This document shows, piece by piece, positions 6,519 through 18,964 of a stretch of 64,000 nucleotides of DNA. How positions within the stretch are numbered: the first letter of the stretch is position 1; every line of letters starts with the position of its first letter. This DNA comes from a virus. A program made the position numbers and the translations under genes. The notes below the pieces were generated by a model. That model was not told where the DNA came from and made no database searches. It saw nothing but the letters and a program-made list of their open reading frames with translations. The stretch spans positions 420 to 64,419 of the IMG/VR virus record IMGVR_UViG_3300031949_000029. The stretch is one strand, 5' to 3'.

Positions 6519-6596
6519 TGGTCTCCGGGATGGGATTCGAACCCACATTCTTCCACTTACGGTACTCGACTTAGGAGATCGAGCCGATACCCGGAG
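6519..6596 (-). pseudogene. D-armless tRNA-like gene (Arg-CCT-like or degenerate Leu)
   Basis: Perfect acceptor CTCCGGG/CCCGGAG, T-arm, ACCA and anticodon hairpin; D-arm reduced to about 7 nt. Confidence 0.65.
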
Positions 6597-12054: not shown

Positions 12055-12131
12055 TGGTAGCCCCGAGGAGATTCGAACTCCCACTGTCATGCTTCTAAGG
12101 CACGTGCCTCCTGCCGTTGGGCTACGGGGCT
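12055..12131 (-). tRNA. tRNA-Leu(TAG), short variable region
   Basis: Loop CT-TAG-AA; A73-CCA. Confidence 0.88.
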
Positions 12132-12137
12132 ATAAGC

Positions 12138-12146
12138 ATCATATCA
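12138..12146 (-). promoter_or_regulatory. Candidate extended -10 promoter before the Leu tRNAs
   Basis: TGATATGAT (TGn-TATGAT) 6 nt upstream of tRNA-Leu(TAG). Confidence 0.4.
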
Positions 12147-12245
12147 GGATTGTGGTGGCTGGCGGAGAGTCAAGCAGCCCTATATCATCCCCACCCATTA
12201 CCGGCTGCCCGGCCACCGCATCCTTTCAGCTTTAGTCCTATCGAA

Positions 12246-12320
12246 TGGTGCAGGCACTGGGACTTGAACCCAGACCAGGCTGGTTAAGAGCCAGCTATGC
12301 TGCATTGACACCATGCCTGC
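12246..12320 (-). tRNA. tRNA-Lys(CTT)
   Basis: Loop CT-CTT-AA; CCA. Confidence 0.92.
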
Positions 12321-12321
12321 G

Positions 12322-12690
12322 TGGAGCCGGGACTTGCTGGTACTGCACGTGTCTTGATCGTCCCAGCAGTAGCCCGGCATGGAACCCCACGCACCGGGTA
12401 AGTCCAAGTGGTTAGCCAGTGCTTACCAACACCAGGCCACCTGGCGGTACGTGGGGGTGCGGCGGTACTGCCCGGCGAGCCTCTCCTGTCACCCAGAGAG
12501 CAGTGGGGGCCTTGAGGACTTGTTCCAGTCTATCTAGGGCGTCAACCGCCCATCCTCGTCATCCTCTGGATCTCGGCCATCGAGCCGGAGTTGCACCGGC
12601 ATGCCCAGGGGAGCGACCTTGCTGGGCAGCGGACAGAGCATGACCGTCGAGGGTCGAAGCTCCCTTCGAACCCCTCGACATGCCCTGTCA
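12322..12690 (-). ncRNA. Candidate large structured ncRNA ending in TCCA
   Basis: Several long helices, a T-loop-like hairpin, and a terminal GCCGGG/CCCGGC-T-CCA; no credible ORF. Confidence 0.6.
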
Positions 12691-12695
12691 TTTCT

Positions 12696-12770
12696 TGGAG
12701 CTGCGGAGTGGCTTCGAACCACTGTCTGCGCCGTACCAGGACGCTGCTCTTCCCATTGAGCTACCACAGC
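12696..12770 (-). tRNA. tRNA-Thr(GGT)
   Basis: Loop CT-GGT-AC; CCA. Confidence 0.9.
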
Positions 12771-12774
12771 AGTC

Positions 12775-12848
12775 TGGAGCGAGTGAGCGGACTCGAACCG
12801 CCGTCATCAGCTTGGAAGGCTGAGGCCCTACCATTGGACGACACTCGC
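12775..12848 (-). tRNA. tRNA-Gly(TCC)
   Basis: Loop CT-TCC-AA; U73-CCA. Confidence 0.93.
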
Positions 12849-12850
12849 TC

Positions 12851-12960
12851 TGTGGTGGCCAGACTCGACACTGGCTGTCCCGGCTGCGGGCTATGCGTGT
12901 AGAATATCTACACGATCCGCGACATGTCCCGCACCGCGTGTCCTTCCACGCCGCACCACA
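12851..12960 (-). ncRNA. tRNA-shaped RNA with an enlarged, branched anticodon domain
   Basis: Acceptor TGTGGTG/CACCACA; D-arm GCGTG-GAAGGA-CACGC; T-arm GCCAG-TGTCGAGT-CTGGC. Confidence 0.65.
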
Positions 12961-13343: not shown

Positions 13344-13414
13344 TGGAGGTAGAGCTTGAGAAGGGGAAGGGCTAGCCCACCACCGGCCCTGCGAAATTCT
13401 CTCCCTGCTCCACC
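13344..13414 (-). ncRNA. Rod-like hairpin RNA ending in TCCA
   Basis: GGTGGAGC/GCTCTACC-T-CCA; fills the slot between two tRNAs. Confidence 0.6.
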
Positions 13415-13747: not shown

Positions 13748-14407
13748 CTATGCCTGTCCTTTGTCTTCGGTGCCTGGGTCCTTAGGGTTCATGGTGATAC
13801 GCTGCAATGCTGAATAAGCCATGTGCACAGGGTCACCAGTGGCCCTAGTAGCTCCAATGTTGGCCGACAAGATGTCTATACTGGGTTTGACCGTAGCCGC
13901 GGTGTAGACAGCAGCTTGTTGCTTGGCAATTCCCAGTCCACCCGCTTCAGCAAAAGCATCCACGTTGGCTCCCAGATAGGTGAACTGCCAGCTGTAAACA
14001 TCACGCTGATGACTGATCATCTGAGCAACCTGGGCCCTGTTGTAGCGCGTGCTGGCGTTTTCCTGGCCATCAGTGATGATGATGAAGATGACTAGCTGGG
14101 GGCGCTGATCCTCAGGGGTGTTGCTCAAACGGCTGCCTACGCTATCGATGGTACGGCCGACAGCGTCCAGAAGGGCGGTCATGCCTCGAGGTTCTAGCCT
14201 GATTTCCGAGACTTCCTGGATCGGCTTGCTGCTAAACACCAACTCATAGATGTCGTCGAACTGGACGAGGGTCAGGTGGCATTCACCAGGAAGCTGCTGC
14301 TGATCAGCAGTGAGAGCCCTGAGGCCCCCTTCCATGTCTAAGCGGCAGCTTGACATCGAGCCGGAGCGGTCCAGCACGACAACTAGCTCAGTAAGGTTCT
14401 GCTTCAT
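13748..14407 (-). CDS. von Willebrand factor A (vWA) domain protein
   Basis: MIDAS motifs VVVLDRSGSM, GMTALLDA and IITDGQEN. Confidence 0.88.
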   Translation of the reverse strand: MKQNLTELVVVLDRSGSMSSCRLDMEGGLRALTADQQQLPGECHLTLVQFDDIYELVFSSKPIQEVSEIRLEPRGMTALLDAVGRTIDSVGSRLSNTPEDQRPQLVIFIIITDGQENASTRYNRAQVAQMISHQRDVYSWQFTYLGANVDAFAEAGGLGIAKQQAAVYTAATVKPSIDILSANIGATRATGDPVHMAYSALQRITMNPKDPGTEDKGQA

Positions 14408-14611: not shown

Positions 14612-14621
14612 TGATTAGAAT

Positions 14622-15101
14622 CTAGGCTCTCTTCCGAGGCTTGGCAAGTGGAGATTTGCCCGAGCGTTTCCGCTTGGCTGCTGCCCTAGTGTCAGCAGCT
14701 TTGGTCTTAGGGCCAATGATCAGCATTTCGGAGGCGGTCCAGCCGAAGAAGGAAGGCGACGATGGTGGCCAGTCAGCACTCTGACTTCCATAAGCTCCAG
14801 TGCCTCGAAGCTTGATTTCTTTGATCACCCTGTTTGCTGCCACCGTTCCCTCTAGGTAGCGTAGAGCTGCCTTGTAGGTATTAAAGGTGTGGAAGCCGGG
14901 CTTGTAGCTACGCAGCTTTTTAAGCTGACTGGCATAGATCAGCTTGCTCCCCCTAGCTTTGATCCAGGTGTCGTATTTGTATGGCTTACCGGAATGATAT
15001 AACGGGGAGTCAAACGCATCATCTCCAATGGGTATCAGGATCTTCCAGGCCCTGGTGTCCCTAGGGATTGGTCCCTTTCTAATGACAAAGTACATGCACA
15101 T
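14622..15101 (-). CDS. Basic hypothetical protein
   Basis: 159-aa ORF with GAGGAGG RBS. Confidence 0.5.
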   Translation of the reverse strand: MCMYFVIRKGPIPRDTRAWKILIPIGDDAFDSPLYHSGKPYKYDTWIKARGSKLIYASQLKKLRSYKPGFHTFNTYKAALRYLEGTVAANRVIKEIKLRGTGAYGSQSADWPPSSPSFFGWTASEMLIIGPKTKAADTRAAAKRKRSGKSPLAKPRKRA

Positions 15102-15194: not shown

Positions 15195-15398
15195 TTATCT
15201 CCAGCTCTCTGGCCAATCTAGATCGAGCCAGACGATAGTAAGAGCACAGGTCAAGCCTACCGCGACTGCCAGTGGAATCTGGACGCTCATGGAAGTGTCT
15301 TTGAAGAGAGATCCCAGGAGGGCACATATGGGAATGCAGATTGCGCTGCCAATTGACCACTGCCGCCATAACCGCCGCCAGCCATCATCATCTAGCAC
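15195..15398 (-). CDS. Small membrane protein
   Basis: Two hydrophobic helices; overlaps the end of the polymerase gene. Confidence 0.4.
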   Translation of the reverse strand: MLDDDGWRRLWRQWSIGSAICIPICALLGSLFKDTSMSVQIPLAVAVGLTCALTIVWLDLDWPESWR

Positions 15399-18300
15399 GC
15401 AATCTCCTCCATTTCTCCCCAGTTAGCTCCTAGCTTGGCGGCCACACCGATTTGTAGGTGTGTACCTAGCTTGGCTAGCTCCCCCACCATTGGCTGCTCC
15501 TCGATCGGCCTGGTCATGGCATTGACAACCTTGGCCAGCACCTTGTCGACTTCGCTCTTGTAGATCTCCAGCAACACCGAATCATGAACTAGGGCTCTGA
15601 ATGGTGTGACCTGGCCTTCCTGTAGAATACAGTTCTCCATGTCCAGGTCAGTCAGCTCCAGACAGCTCTCGTACAAGACACCAGCTGCAGTACTCTGTGG
15701 ATAGTAAGCAATACAGGACTTAGCATCAGCTCCTAGTGTCCATTCGCCGCGCTGTCCATCCCACTGATAAACTTCCCAGAACCAATGCTTGTAGTGGAAT
15801 GGATGGTCAGCTCCCCCCAAATACCCCATCTTCCAAGCCCGATCGCGCAGGGCCTGGTGCCAGGCAGGAAGCTTAGGGCATAGCTCGAACAGCAGCTTCT
15901 GGTTAGCCTCTGCACTAGCTACTGTAGGGAACAGCTCCGGGTAAGTCTTGTGGAGTCCTAGAGCGGTCATCCCATAGAGAGTATTCCCAGTGACGCTGAT
16001 CCGGTTCCTATGGCGTGTTAAGAAGTAGCTAGATGGGACGGTAACACAGTAGACAGGTCCGTCCCAAGGGACCAGCGTCTTGATAAGACAGCAAACCCGA
16101 GCTAGTTTTCGCTTGTTAAATGACAGCTTGTACAGAGGTAGCCTCTTACCTTCCCTTAGGTGCATCTGGAGTAGCGCCTGTATCCCTGCCAGATGTGCCA
16201 GTGTCTGTATCGCCTCTGCATTGGATTTGTTGGTCGTCATGTACCAGGACTGCTTACCATGTCGGTGTCCATCCCAGAAGGTGGTTTCATCGACTAAGGC
16301 ACGTTTCTGGCTGGCTGTCAGGACTAGCAGCTTATCCAGTACAAAAGTTTTGTCAGGCTCAGCTAGATAAGCCAGAGCCCTTGGTATGGAAGCTTTGCTA
16401 ATTCTGTAGTAAGTCCTGCCTGGGTAGTCTGGATATTCTCGTTTGGTGAAATCAGCGTGACAGGTCTGGAGAAGCAGCTCTAACCGCTTCTTCTTTCTAG
16501 ACCTCTTCAGACAGAAGCGCACTTTCTTTCTACTGAGATGACCATCTGCCTGGATTGCGGCAGCCAACTGTGGATAGACACCATCCTCAACGGGGCCTTG
16601 AAGTATGCCATTTATTGGAATCCGATCATGCTTCTTTAATGTGTCAGCCGTACGCTCTACAAGGACATTGTTAGTGATGGTAGCTAGTCTATGCCAAGGA
16701 GTCATCGTAGCTGACAAGCCACGACCTTCTAACCTGATCATCTCCCCTTGCCAGTCACGGTTGGTTATCCTAGAAGGTACGACAAACTCGATAGCCCCGT
16801 TAGACCATTGTGCCACCTGTGTTCCAGTCTGTAGCTGGTCCAAGCGCACCCAGCCCTGTGGCGTTAAAACCTCATGTGCGCCTGATAGGCATCCATAAAT
16901 CGTGCGCTTAGACTTATCTCGCTGAGCCCCAGCCCTTGCCTTAATCGCCTTCAATGCTTGTCTTAGCTCATCGTCCCCCCAGCCAGCGTCAACCCGCTCC
17001 CCCAGCACGTGTCCAGCGTGGTAATCGTGGATACCAAGCTTGGCTAGCCGAACGAAATCTGGGTCACCTAGGAACCAGCCAGTCTCTACAGCTTCGATTG
17101 CACTAAAATCGACCTCCAGCAGAACCATCCCAGGTCCTGCCACCAGTGCCCTTCTGAACTTGCTCTCCTTGTCGACATTCTGAAGGTTCGGGTTGACACA
17201 GCTGAGCCGCATTGTAGAGGGCCCATGGGTGAAAGTCGGGTGGAGTCTGCCATCTGCCCCCAGCCGCCTCTCGGTCCCTTCTACATAGGTTCCCAGGACC
17301 TTATCAACACGTCGGTAGTCTAGAACTAGCGGATACAACGGGTCCTTAGTGGTCTTGGCTAGCCTGGCTAGTGTTTGCTCATCAGTGCTATCCCTAGCTG
17401 TCTTCTTGGCCCTCCCAGGCTTATGTCTCTTATGCTTGATGTAGTTAAGTAGCTGATCTGGGCTGCCCAGATTGAATGGAAGCTGCCTATGATATCTGCT
17501 GGTCTGCTGCGACTCCTTCACTACCTTGGGCTTAAGCTCCTTACTGATTTTTCCTTTCTCATCCTTACAGCGGTGGGTCTTAGTTACATTCACTTCTCTA
17601 CATGTCAGGCATAGCTGGATCTCGACAAGCTCCAGCTTTTCTACGATCCCAGCCTCGCCAGCTGGTCTACGCGCTAGTGACGGCCCAAGAGGTTTTAGTG
17701 CTTCGTCAACTAGGTTCTGGGCCTTAGCAACCAGTACCAGCTTCTCACTAGCCAGTTCTTGACGGTAAGCAGCAAGCCCAGCTTTGTCCACCCCCAAGCC
17801 AGCGTCTTCGGCTGGCTTGAGCACTTGACTATCCAAGCAGTAAACATGGCGTTGGAAGGCTTCCCACTGACCTCCAGCTTGGAGGTCTCTAGTGATACCA
17901 AAAGCGCATCGCAGTGTCTGCACTGCGTCCACAGCAGCGTAGCGCCCAGGGTCAGTCCCGGATAAATGCTTCCAAGGTCCGTAGTCAGAGTAGAATGGCG
18001 CCACGAATCCAAGGCCGCGTGGTAGGTCTGATTGAAGCACGTGCCAGGCCCACATGAAATCAAGCACTCTCCCTGTGGAGGCGAAACCGGCTGCTCGTAG
18101 CCTTGGGATATCGTAACTAGCGTTCCAGTAACACTGAACTCCTTGGTGTCCAAGAAGTCTCCTAATTATCGCCAAATACTGGCCAGACCAAGGGACTGTC
18201 ACCCCCTGATCTGGGTGGTAAGCAAAGTTGATCCTGATGATCTCGCCGAAATCATCTGCTAGCTCATCTTCGGCCTGCCCAAGAATCTTGTCCTGGGTCT

Positions 18301-18964
18301 CAATGTCAACAGCAAGCCAGCAGTCTTCAGTGATCCTAGTGGCCCACTGCTCGAACCAGGACGGGCTGGGGTCTACTACCAGACTAGTCGGTGCCGGCCT
18401 AGGGTCACGTCCCCCGGCCACTTCAATCGCTTGCTTCAAATCCCAGCAGACCACTCCACTCAGCTTCTTGTTGCCTCTTAGTAGGTAAGCTGGGTGGAAG
18501 CTGGGTACTACCCAGAAGCGACCATGAGGTTCCAGTACCGGCTGGCCATGCCAGTTCTGCTGCTTGTGTCCTTTGCGGGGAAGTCCTAGAAGCTGGCGAG
18601 TGGCAGAACCTCCCAGGGCCACCACCGCTCTCCTGCCTTCACCTAAGGTCTTATCCAGATACTGCCTGCAGGTGGCCAGTGCTTGGTGTTCCCAAGGGGC
18701 GCCATCTAGCCAATCATTGGGTGGCTGACAGCGTACACAGTTGTCTACCCTGACTGCTGCCCGATCGAGGCCAACTTTGGTCAGTAAGCGGTTGAGCAAT
18801 TCTCCGCTAGGACCGACAAAAGGCTGGCCAGCCAAAGCCTCAGAGCGTCCTAGCGCCTCTCCTACAATCGCTAGCTCAGCTTGTACTGGACCTGAAGCTG
18901 GGGCATAACCTAGACCCCTGTCAAACAATACGCATCCGGCACATGTCGACGGCTTCTGAAGCAC
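15392..18964 (-). CDS. polA: Family A DNA polymerase with N-terminal family-4 uracil-DNA glycosylase, 3'-5' exonuclease and an intein
   Basis: UDG: CAGC, IVGEALG..E...PFVGPSG, FHPAYLLR. Exo: AVDIET, NASYD. Pol: RLSCVNPNLQN, EVDFSAIE, KRTIYG, VHDSV. Confidence 0.93.
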   Translation of the reverse strand: MLQKPSTCAGCVLFDRGLGYAPASGPVQAELAIVGEALGRSEALAGQPFVGPSGELLNRLLTKVGLDRAAVRVDNCVRCQPPNDWLDGAPWEHQALATCRQYLDKTLGEGRRAVVALGGSATRQLLGLPRKGHKQQNWHGQPVLEPHGRFWVVPSFHPAYLLRGNKKLSGVVCWDLKQAIEVAGGRDPRPAPTSLVVDPSPSWFEQWATRITEDCWLAVDIETQDKILGQAEDELADDFGEIIRINFAYHPDQGVTVPWSGQYLAIIRRLLGHQGVQCYWNASYDIPRLRAAGFASTGRVLDFMWAWHVLQSDLPRGLGFVAPFYSDYGPWKHLSGTDPGRYAAVDAVQTLRCAFGITRDLQAGGQWEAFQRHVYCLDSQVLKPAEDAGLGVDKAGLAAYRQELASEKLVLVAKAQNLVDEALKPLGPSLARRPAGEAGIVEKLELVEIQLCLTCREVNVTKTHRCKDEKGKISKELKPKVVKESQQTSRYHRQLPFNLGSPDQLLNYIKHKRHKPGRAKKTARDSTDEQTLARLAKTTKDPLYPLVLDYRRVDKVLGTYVEGTERRLGADGRLHPTFTHGPSTMRLSCVNPNLQNVDKESKFRRALVAGPGMVLLEVDFSAIEAVETGWFLGDPDFVRLAKLGIHDYHAGHVLGERVDAGWGDDELRQALKAIKARAGAQRDKSKRTIYGCLSGAHEVLTPQGWVRLDQLQTGTQVAQWSNGAIEFVVPSRITNRDWQGEMIRLEGRGLSATMTPWHRLATITNNVLVERTADTLKKHDRIPINGILQGPVEDGVYPQLAAAIQADGHLSRKKVRFCLKRSRKKKRLELLLQTCHADFTKREYPDYPGRTYYRISKASIPRALAYLAEPDKTFVLDKLLVLTASQKRALVDETTFWDGHRHGKQSWYMTTNKSNAEAIQTLAHLAGIQALLQMHLREGKRLPLYKLSFNKRKLARVCCLIKTLVPWDGPVYCVTVPSSYFLTRHRNRISVTGNTLYGMTALGLHKTYPELFPTVASAEANQKLLFELCPKLPAWHQALRDRAWKMGYLGGADHPFHYKHWFWEVYQWDGQRGEWTLGADAKSCIAYYPQSTAAGVLYESCLELTDLDMENCILQEGQVTPFRALVHDSVLLEIYKSEVDKVLAKVVNAMTRPIEEQPMVGELAKLGTHLQIGVAAKLGANWGEMEEIAC
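15983..16891 (-). mobile_element. Intein (303 aa) with LAGLIDADG-type endonuclease, in PolA motif B
   Basis: Begins CLSGAHEVLTPQGW, ends SVTGN with Thr at +1; AIQADG and TFWDG blocks; excision restores KRTIYG-TLYGM. Confidence 0.88.

Follow-up and report, generated by a model that had tools for sequence, protein, structure and literature searches.

The tRNA cluster of phage T4 encodes RNAC and RNAD (species 1 and 2 RNAs), two small non-tRNA RNAs that lie among its tRNA genes on the same strand, derive from transcripts of the tRNA region and have roles that are still unknown (PMC3014915, PMC9697503). In plant mitochondria, non-decoding tRNA-like structures called t-elements have been proposed to serve as cut guides for RNase P and RNase Z, which set the ends of adjacent RNAs in this way (Forner et al. 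2007, PMC1920247). Phage tRNA arrays themselves are discussed as counter-measures to host defences that target tRNAs (PMC10264068).

Non-tRNA RNAs interleaved in phage arrays have been unexplained since T4 RNAC/RNAD, and the locus described here is one more example. Its source is an uncultivated soil phage, an IMG/VR contig of about 65 kb (IMGVR_UViG_3300031949_000029). The record is linear, 64,976 bp long and 88% complete according to CheckV, and the window, by which we mean the whole 64,000-nt stretch of DNA that was analysed, corresponds to its positions 420-64419. An earlier note on this DNA had described about 370 nt between two tRNA genes as a single multi-helix RNA.

Genomic context of the 375-nt gap

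ARAGORN identified 32 tRNA genes between 4495 and 14611, on the minus strand throughout and mostly with an encoded CCA. Rfam at the gathering score, run over the whole window, confirmed 25 of the 32 and detected no other family. The genes flanking the array are on the minus strand, the same as the 32 tRNAs, and small minus-strand ORFs are interleaved with the tRNAs. The gap studied here is located at 12321-12695 on the minus strand, spans 375 nt from tRNA-Thr(GGT) to tRNA-Lys(CTT), and agrees with the coordinates and neighbours reported earlier. Its nucleotides are numbered so that element nt i is window position 12696 minus i, and its GC content exceeds the genome mean. The locus comprises the following features:

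12246..12320, minus strand: tRNA-Lys(CTT), downstream neighbour (ARAGORN; Rfam tRNA 53 bits)
12696..12770, minus strand: tRNA-Thr(GGT), upstream neighbour, with encoded CCA (ARAGORN; Rfam tRNA 59 bits)
14619..14647, minus strand: sigma-70-like promoter match just upstream of tRNA-Trp (consensus match only)
15392-18964, minus strand: UDG-PolA fusion gene, upstream of the array (1190 aa)

The match at 14619..14647 was the sole sigma-70-like match near the head of the array and is a possible operon promoter. Within the 375-nt element, no promoter-like or terminator-like sites were matched.

Two further observations were made around the array. The UDG-PolA fusion protein has 1190 aa, compared with about 860-950 aa in most relatives, and its best alignments cover about 58%, which indicates a large insertion of roughly 250-300 aa. 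The inserted part could be an intein; an intein Pfam domain is found in the relative P0052. At 6519-6596 (minus strand) we found a 78-nt tRNA-like gene that was missed by ARAGORN and by Rfam at the gathering score, at the position where relatives have tRNA-Arg(CCT). Its acceptor stem (CUCCGGG/CCCGGAG) and its anticodon stem are each 7 bp long, and the anticodon loop CUCCUAA contains CCU (Arg). A D arm is missing, the variable region is long, the T arm (GUGGG-UUCGAAU-CCCAU) is normal, and A-CCA follows. The 3' end of the gap that contains this gene, a little downstream of it, has a blastn match near L054:18876-18951 (Rfam tRNA 34.6 bits).

Known RNA families and coding potential

Rfam was run on the window at the gathering score, on 12100-12900 and on the element alone at E<=10, and on seven related loci. 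No match beyond noise was obtained in the element at the gathering score or at E<=10, which bore out the earlier statement that the cores of known RNAs are absent, and the seven related loci yielded only tRNAs plus noise far below the gathering score. The best sub-gathering scores for the element alone were MIR528 (17 bits), Xoo8, che1, Twister-sister (14.6 bits) and Tymo_tRNA-like (12.6 bits); several of these noise alignments, including the last two, run through the hairpin GCCGG-UGCAACU-CCGGC.

Individual candidates were also rejected. For tRNA (RF00005, at least 29 bits), there was no match in 12321-12695 at E<=10, and ARAGORN made no call at default or 80% settings, with or without introns. 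For tmRNA (RF00023, clan CL00001), there was no match at E<=10, and ARAGORN -m found none in the window at 80%; at 70% it made a single wrong-strand call that overran the flanking tRNAs. Nor does the layout match a tmRNA, whose ends would pair into an acceptor stem with G3-U70, with a T arm immediately preceding the 3' strand and a terminal ACCA: in the element, the T-arm-like hairpin lies in the interior, at nt 96-112 of 375, and the RNA closes with a rod that folds on itself. The Tymovirus tRNA-like structure (RF00233), for which the gathering score is 40, reached 12.6 bits (E 3.6), with its pseudoknot linker absent from the alignment. RNase P RNA, SRP RNA, 6S, cobalamin riboswitch, group I/II introns and GOLLD/ROOL went unmatched by Rfam, both across the window at the gathering score and within the element at E<=10. 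The sole match to YrlA / Y RNA (RF02553), with 16.3 bits against 69, was on the flanking tRNAs at 12746-12806, and no TROVE (Ro60) gene was matched in the 64,976-bp record (estimated 88% complete). In a contig with a polymerase 55% identical to that of this phage, a Ro60 orthologue (TROVE + vWA_Ro60) is located between two tRNA-Met genes (L051:13002-14636).

No conserved ORF was found inside the element. The tblastn comparison of its internal frames with seven related arrays gave no match, and matches below E 0.01 came only from frames overlapping the flanking tRNAs.

Stable folding is confined to three rods

All helices quoted in the earlier note are present in the sequence, on the minus strand. 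The whole gap folds with an MFE of -173.9 kcal/mol (z -2.86, 0 of 100 dinucleotide shuffles as good), and its opposite strand with -167.4 kcal/mol (z -2.32). The fold signal is local and differs widely between the parts of the element, which we divided as follows:

M1, 12632..12689, minus strand (nt 7-64): 58-nt rod of 24 bp (10+8+6) with a GGAG loop; MFE -36.5 kcal/mol, z -7.45
M2a, 12567..12627, minus strand (nt 69-129): hairpin, T-arm-like hairpin, mini hairpin and A-UCCA; z -0.65
M2b, 12458..12566, minus strand (nt 130-238): 109-nt GC-rich middle; z +0.33, 125 of 200 shuffles fold as well
M3, 12380..12457, minus strand (nt 239-316): 78-nt rod of 12+8+8 bp; MFE -43.5 kcal/mol, z -3.93, 0 of 200 shuffles as stable
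M4, 12322..12378, minus strand (nt 318-374): 57-nt rod of 6+2+6 bp with a loop of about 20 nt; MFE -24.1 kcal/mol, z -2.72

M1 begins 6 nt past the CCA of tRNA-Thr, is followed by neither CCA nor a U-run, and was matched in stability by 0 of 200 shuffles, with pair probabilities of 0.86-0.97. M2a is ordered as GCCCAG/CUGGGC, AU, GCCGG-UGCAACU-CCGGC (12584-12600), a 4-bp mini hairpin and A-UCCA, which abuts the next helix directly. M2b contains the small hairpins GGGCG/CGCCC and CUCUC/GAGAG, of which only the 5-bp GGGCG hairpin is of high probability, and has no CCA tail. In M3, the outer 12-bp helix is followed by UU-CCA, and a single U separates M3 from M4. A three-way junction, read earlier from an 11-bp helix enclosing CCAGG/CCUGG and GGUAAG/CUUACC, was not favoured in this region, reaching -32.5 kcal/mol compared with -43.5 kcal/mol for a continuous 28-bp rod. 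For M4, 3 of 200 shuffles were as stable and pair probabilities were 0.96-0.99. Its end, ...GGC-U-CCA, is followed by one C and then by G1 of tRNA-Lys, so the terminal rod does end in T-CCA 1 nt before that tRNA, as had been noted.

In these models, structure beyond composition is limited to the three rods M1, M3 and M4, and the central ~175 nt are predicted to fold like shuffles. In a GC-corrected scan of 6392 80-nt minus-strand windows, M3 ranked 2nd and M1 5th, and the middle was average. Pair probabilities above 0.6 were seen only in M1, the 5-bp GGGCG hairpin, M3 and M4, and no confident long-range pairing was predicted in the 375 nt. The minus-strand fold is stronger than the plus-strand fold through 12 G-U pairs in the element: M1, with one G-U pair, folds with -36.5 on the minus strand versus -31.1 kcal/mol on the plus strand, and M3, with five, with -43.5 versus -37.3 kcal/mol. 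The better folding of M1 and M3 as minus-strand RNA points to structure at the RNA level, on the tRNA strand. The reading of the earlier note is thus partly borne out: within a tRNA operon lies non-coding RNA structure that is strand-specific and belongs to no known family. The question raised there, whether one RNA or several are made, was apt, and a single multi-helix RNA of about 370 nt is not supported, given the missing long-range pairs, the shuffle-like centre and modules with N-CCA tails of their own in tRNA register. Elsewhere in the contig, repeats of the element or antisense targets were limited to 11-13-mers, at chance level.

tRNA-like features of the middle

Comparisons with tRNAs suggest where part of the middle may have come from. 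The loop-plus-stem GGUGCAACUCC of M2a is one base off GGUUCAACUCC, the T arm of four array tRNAs. MAGs of Verrucomicrobiota and Planctomycetota have a tRNA-Met(CAU) whose T arm differs from the T-arm-like hairpin of M2a by one nucleotide. Including the preceding CCCUGGG, 27 of 30 nt agree between M2a and the MAG tRNA-Met, and a collinear AGCAAGG block is also common to both; ahead of the T arm, the two are not significantly alike (z about 1.7). The MAG genes were found with a two-hairpin pattern derived from the copy of this motif in the relative L028, so the match is partly by construction. For the hairpin preceding the T-arm-like hairpin, the best of about 100 tRNAs was the T-arm region of the phage's own tRNA-Tyr (z 4.2). 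M2a cannot be arranged as a cloverleaf, and its acceptor strands do not pair. In M3 and M4, UA can be read right after a 7-nt acceptor-like strand. M2a is probably a tRNA relic or mimic; the likenesses moderately support a tRNA origin of M2a and weakly support one of M3 and M4.

The hairpin GCCGG-UGCAACU-CCGGC, or its loop variant UGGAACU, recurs in metagenome and genome contigs (L081, L090 and L065), in contexts that we take to resemble cobalamin riboswitches (GGGAGAAUCUGGGAAGCCGGUG.AACUCCGGCACAGG...). The rest of the cobalamin riboswitch core is absent from the element. This hairpin is a common T-loop module, diagnostic of no single family.

CCA tails in tRNA register

The spacing between array tRNAs, which carry CCA, is often 0-1 nt, and the tails of M3 and M4 sit 1 nt before the next element. 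Inside the element, three of the nine CCA triplets stand right after helices (nt 127, 314 and 372), an argument that is post hoc. We also counted gaps in seven syntenic arrays (window, L028, L029, L052, L053, L054 and L055), with internal positions as background. CCA was located 0-5 nt before the next tRNA in 18 of 77 gaps of at least 40 nt versus a background of 11% (p 0.0016), and a closing helix of at least 6 bp preceded the discriminator in 12 of these 18 versus 37% of internal CCAs (p 0.011). Some of the CCA-ended gaps are cryptic tRNAs that Rfam detects and ARAGORN misses, and others are plain rods. CCA-ended non-tRNA elements are a clade-wide habit. Within the element, M3 has two unpaired bases before CCA, not one, and both M3 and M4 are without a T loop.

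One of the plain rods is in the window itself, at 13344-13414 (minus strand). It is 71 nt long with an 8-bp closing helix, fills nearly all of the 75-nt gap between tRNA-Glu(CTC) and tRNA-Gly(GCC), and is built like M3 and M4, with a terminal U-CCA that leaves 1 nt to the following tRNA.

The same slot in related phages

The closest polymerase among 5.8 billion proteins was 58% identical, which indicates a phage without a near relative on record. Contigs with polymerases 48-54% identical fell into two groups, an arrayless one (L026, L030 and L051, the last with two tRNA-Met genes and a Ro60 gene) and an array-bearing one. The array order Trp-Tyr-Gly-Thr(ggt)-Lys(ctt)-Leu... is common to six relatives, in which the length of the slot between Thr(ggt) and Lys(ctt) varies strongly:

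Window: 375 nt
L028: 212 nt
L029: 92 nt
L053: at least 147 nt (contig end)
L052: 7 nt
L054: 2 nt
L055: 1 nt

The slot is thus empty (1, 2 and 7 nt) in three of the six syntenic relatives, and the other three hold inserts unrelated to that of the window. No homologue of the 375 nt was found with nhmmer and blastn against all fetched loci, and blastn against 50,697 phage records matched only the flanking tRNAs. An all-against-all blastn of 101 array gaps, which readily linked coding gaps and one cryptic tRNA between phages, found no partner for the 375-nt gap.

In pattern scans of IMG/VR, the two-hairpin pattern had 0 matches, and a 16-mer from the D arm of tRNA-Lys had 19 chance matches, none of them inside a tRNA. 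A metagenome scan with a 34-base tRNA-Lys pattern had 0 matches. Two-hairpin scans of genomes and metagenomes, with a pattern that fits the L028 copy (linker 1-2 nt) and not the window copy (3 nt), yielded mainly a single conserved coding motif, which its translation suggests to be glutamate synthase, together with a few tRNA-Met genes and a few others. IMG/VR loci reached via the polymerase had no arrays near the gene, and those reached via a VWA-like protein had unrelated arrays.

A 27-nt two-hairpin motif, CCCAG...CUGGG + GCCGG-U..AACU-CCGGC, is common to M2a and the L028 insert. The L028 gap was the best match among about 70 gaps (z 4.0), and 2 of 100 shuffles reached its score. This motif is the sole apparent trace of homology for the element, and since its stems are identical in the window and L028, it offers no covariation. 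Within the reach of these comparisons no structural conservation emerged, an outcome that the earlier note took as speaking against its reading: three of the six syntenic relatives are without an insert, the inserts of the others are unrelated and nothing could be aligned for covariation. With no polymerase more than 58% identical, even the nearest relatives are far off, so the missing conservation is weak evidence against function.

The L028 insert (14093-14296) is 204 nt long, and its first nine bases pair with the nine that follow a T-arm-like hairpin (loop UAAAACU). The resulting 9-bp acceptor-like stem is followed by U-CCA, 1 nt before tRNA-Lys, and the fold z is only -1.3. From its sequence, the insert reads as some 125 nt of body set in a tRNA-like frame. 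We rejected it as a tmRNA, given the G-U at position 6, the U discriminator, an ARAGORN call only at 80% and an atypical 31-residue tag. T-arm-bearing inserts occur in L028 and L053, and L029 possibly contains a degenerate one. Elsewhere in the L028 array, ARAGORN at default reported a 'tmRNA' with the tag APKQEVCPTAMAPAAVV* at 15562-15812, which spans tRNA-Asp to tRNA-Ala; two tRNAs together with an insert probably produced this call as an artefact.

Discussion

A single Thr/Lys slot in this clade of ~65-kb soil phages is thus empty in some members and holds different T-arm-bearing or CCA-ended inserts in others. The pattern would fit rapid birth and death of tRNA-derived modules, and it argues against reading helix-rich array spacers as single large ncRNAs. 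We propose, with moderate confidence, that the 375 nt are a lineage-specific, modular, non-coding insert in a polycistronic tRNA operon that is cut up together with the tRNAs. It most likely consists of four or five independent modules, not one RNA machine. The data show the anatomy of the sequence, the local folding signal, its strand bias, the absence of the insert from relatives and the lack of a known family or ORF. That the modules are tRNA-derived or tRNA-mimicking is our inference, as are transcription and the cleavage sites.

In the proposed arrangement, M1 would be a 24-bp rod and M2b about 110 nt of ordinary GC-rich filler. M2a would be a decayed or remodelled tRNA, made up of an anticodon- or variable-arm-like hairpin, a T-arm-like hairpin, a mini hairpin and AUCCA. 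M3 and M4 would be rods with N(N)-CCA, placed 1 nt before the next element as array tRNAs are. Transcription of the minus strand would yield the insert along with the tRNAs, and RNase P would then cut at the 5' side of tRNA-Lys and probably also before M4 and M3, because a 12-bp helix with 3' NCCA is reportedly a minimal RNase P substrate, a result ascribed to McClain, Guerrier-Takada and Altman in 1987; 12 bp is the length of the tRNA acceptor plus T-stem stack. Exonucleases would trim the pieces back to CCA, leaving small CCA-ended pieces that, being self-folded, would not disturb the folding and processing of the neighbouring tRNAs. The model offers no explanation for M1, which has no CCA tail.

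Several other explanations were weighed against this one. The insert may instead be functionless debris, which we consider possible although clearly less probable: a decayed tRNA slot whose GC-rich hairpins arose by drift or small inverted duplications, whose RNA is excised and degraded, and whose CCA tails and T-arm-like hairpin would be relics rather than signals. Such decay would account for the presence or absence of the slot's content and its complete sequence turnover among relatives, as well as for a middle no more structured than shuffles and the lack of covariation and of any homologue in the searches above. It does not predict that M1 and M3 are among the top five of 6392 80-nt windows and strand-specific. 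The enrichment, over seven arrays, of CCA tails placed exactly in tRNA register also speaks against it. Precursors of the T4 tRNA cluster, like T7 early RNA, are split by RNase III, and here too a long tRNA precursor could be split by this enzyme at the rods, chiefly at M1 (24 bp) and M3 (28 bp). Rods of at least two helical turns with small internal loops would suit this enzyme, no U-run follows them, so they are not terminators, and M1 without its CCA tail, otherwise unexplained, would find a role. We nevertheless regard cleavage by RNase III as unlikely, since relatives process the same tRNA pair with 1-7 nt spacing and without the rods.

One structured ncRNA of about 370 nt with a dedicated function, as envisaged in the earlier note, could draw on the overall z of -2.86, the absence of an ORF and of a known family in the tests above, and a GC content above the genome mean. 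It is nonetheless improbable in our view, because there are no confident long-range pairs, the central ~175 nt behave like shuffles, N-CCA tails in tRNA register lie inside the element, half of the syntenic relatives have an empty slot, and phage records, IMG/VR, fetched relatives and pattern scans yielded no homologue. A small protein gene is the explanation to which we give the least credence and is very improbable. A 49-codon ATG frame does exist at 12542-12691 (minus strand) and other array gaps hold small conserved ORFs, but this frame runs through the M1 rod, the internal frames had no tblastn match in seven arrays, and the coding gaps of the same arrays are readily found by blastn, unlike the 375-nt gap.

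Within the modular model that we prefer, a more speculative and rather unlikely extension is that M2a, M3 and M4 are separate CCA-ended RNAs that act as fast-evolving acceptor-end decoys for host factors that attack or process tRNA 3' ends. Their targets may be acceptor-end modifying or cleaving toxins, or RNase P and the CCA-adding enzyme. If this were true, the tRNA-slot hairpins that are enriched in this soil-phage clade would form a counter-defence layer and would not be spacers. By itself, the element is poorly conserved and its interest is limited.

Comparison with known systems

M3 and M4 partly resemble the acceptor/T-arm minihelices used as model substrates of RNase P and the CCA-adding enzyme: M3 has an uninterrupted 12-bp helix followed by single-stranded NN-CCA, and M4 is an 8+6-bp rod with N-CCA. 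Unlike these substrates, both are without the 7-nt T loop, M3 has two bases before CCA, and the rods extend well beyond 12 bp. Against the features of a minihelix mimic, M4 has N-CCA but its helix is interrupted and its loop has 20 nt.

M2a recalls the Tymovirus tRNA-like structure (RF00233) in its order of a hairpin, a T arm with the identical loop UGCAACU, a 3' hairpin and A-xCCA (cmscan 12.6 bits, E 3.6). It differs in that the 7-nt linker of the acceptor pseudoknot is missing, and it belongs to a DNA phage and not to the 3' end of a plant RNA virus. With decayed tRNAs in arrays M2a shares a T-arm hairpin that is one substitution off, CCCUGGG, the AGCAAGG block and a downstream CCA; unlike them it has no cloverleaf, its acceptor strands are unpaired, and its similarity outside the T arm is not significant.

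Two systems remain for the element as a whole. The t-elements punctuate organelle mRNAs, whereas the element sits between genuine phage tRNAs. Compared with T4 RNAC/RNAD, it has no sequence similarity (blastn against 50,697 phage records gave only tRNA matches), and it is a string of modules in one slot, unconserved within its own clade. As a sequence it is a member of no family, and by analogy it appears to resemble the T4 RNAC/RNAD kind: like those RNAs, it lies among phage tRNA genes and on their strand, and it folds in a strand-specific manner.
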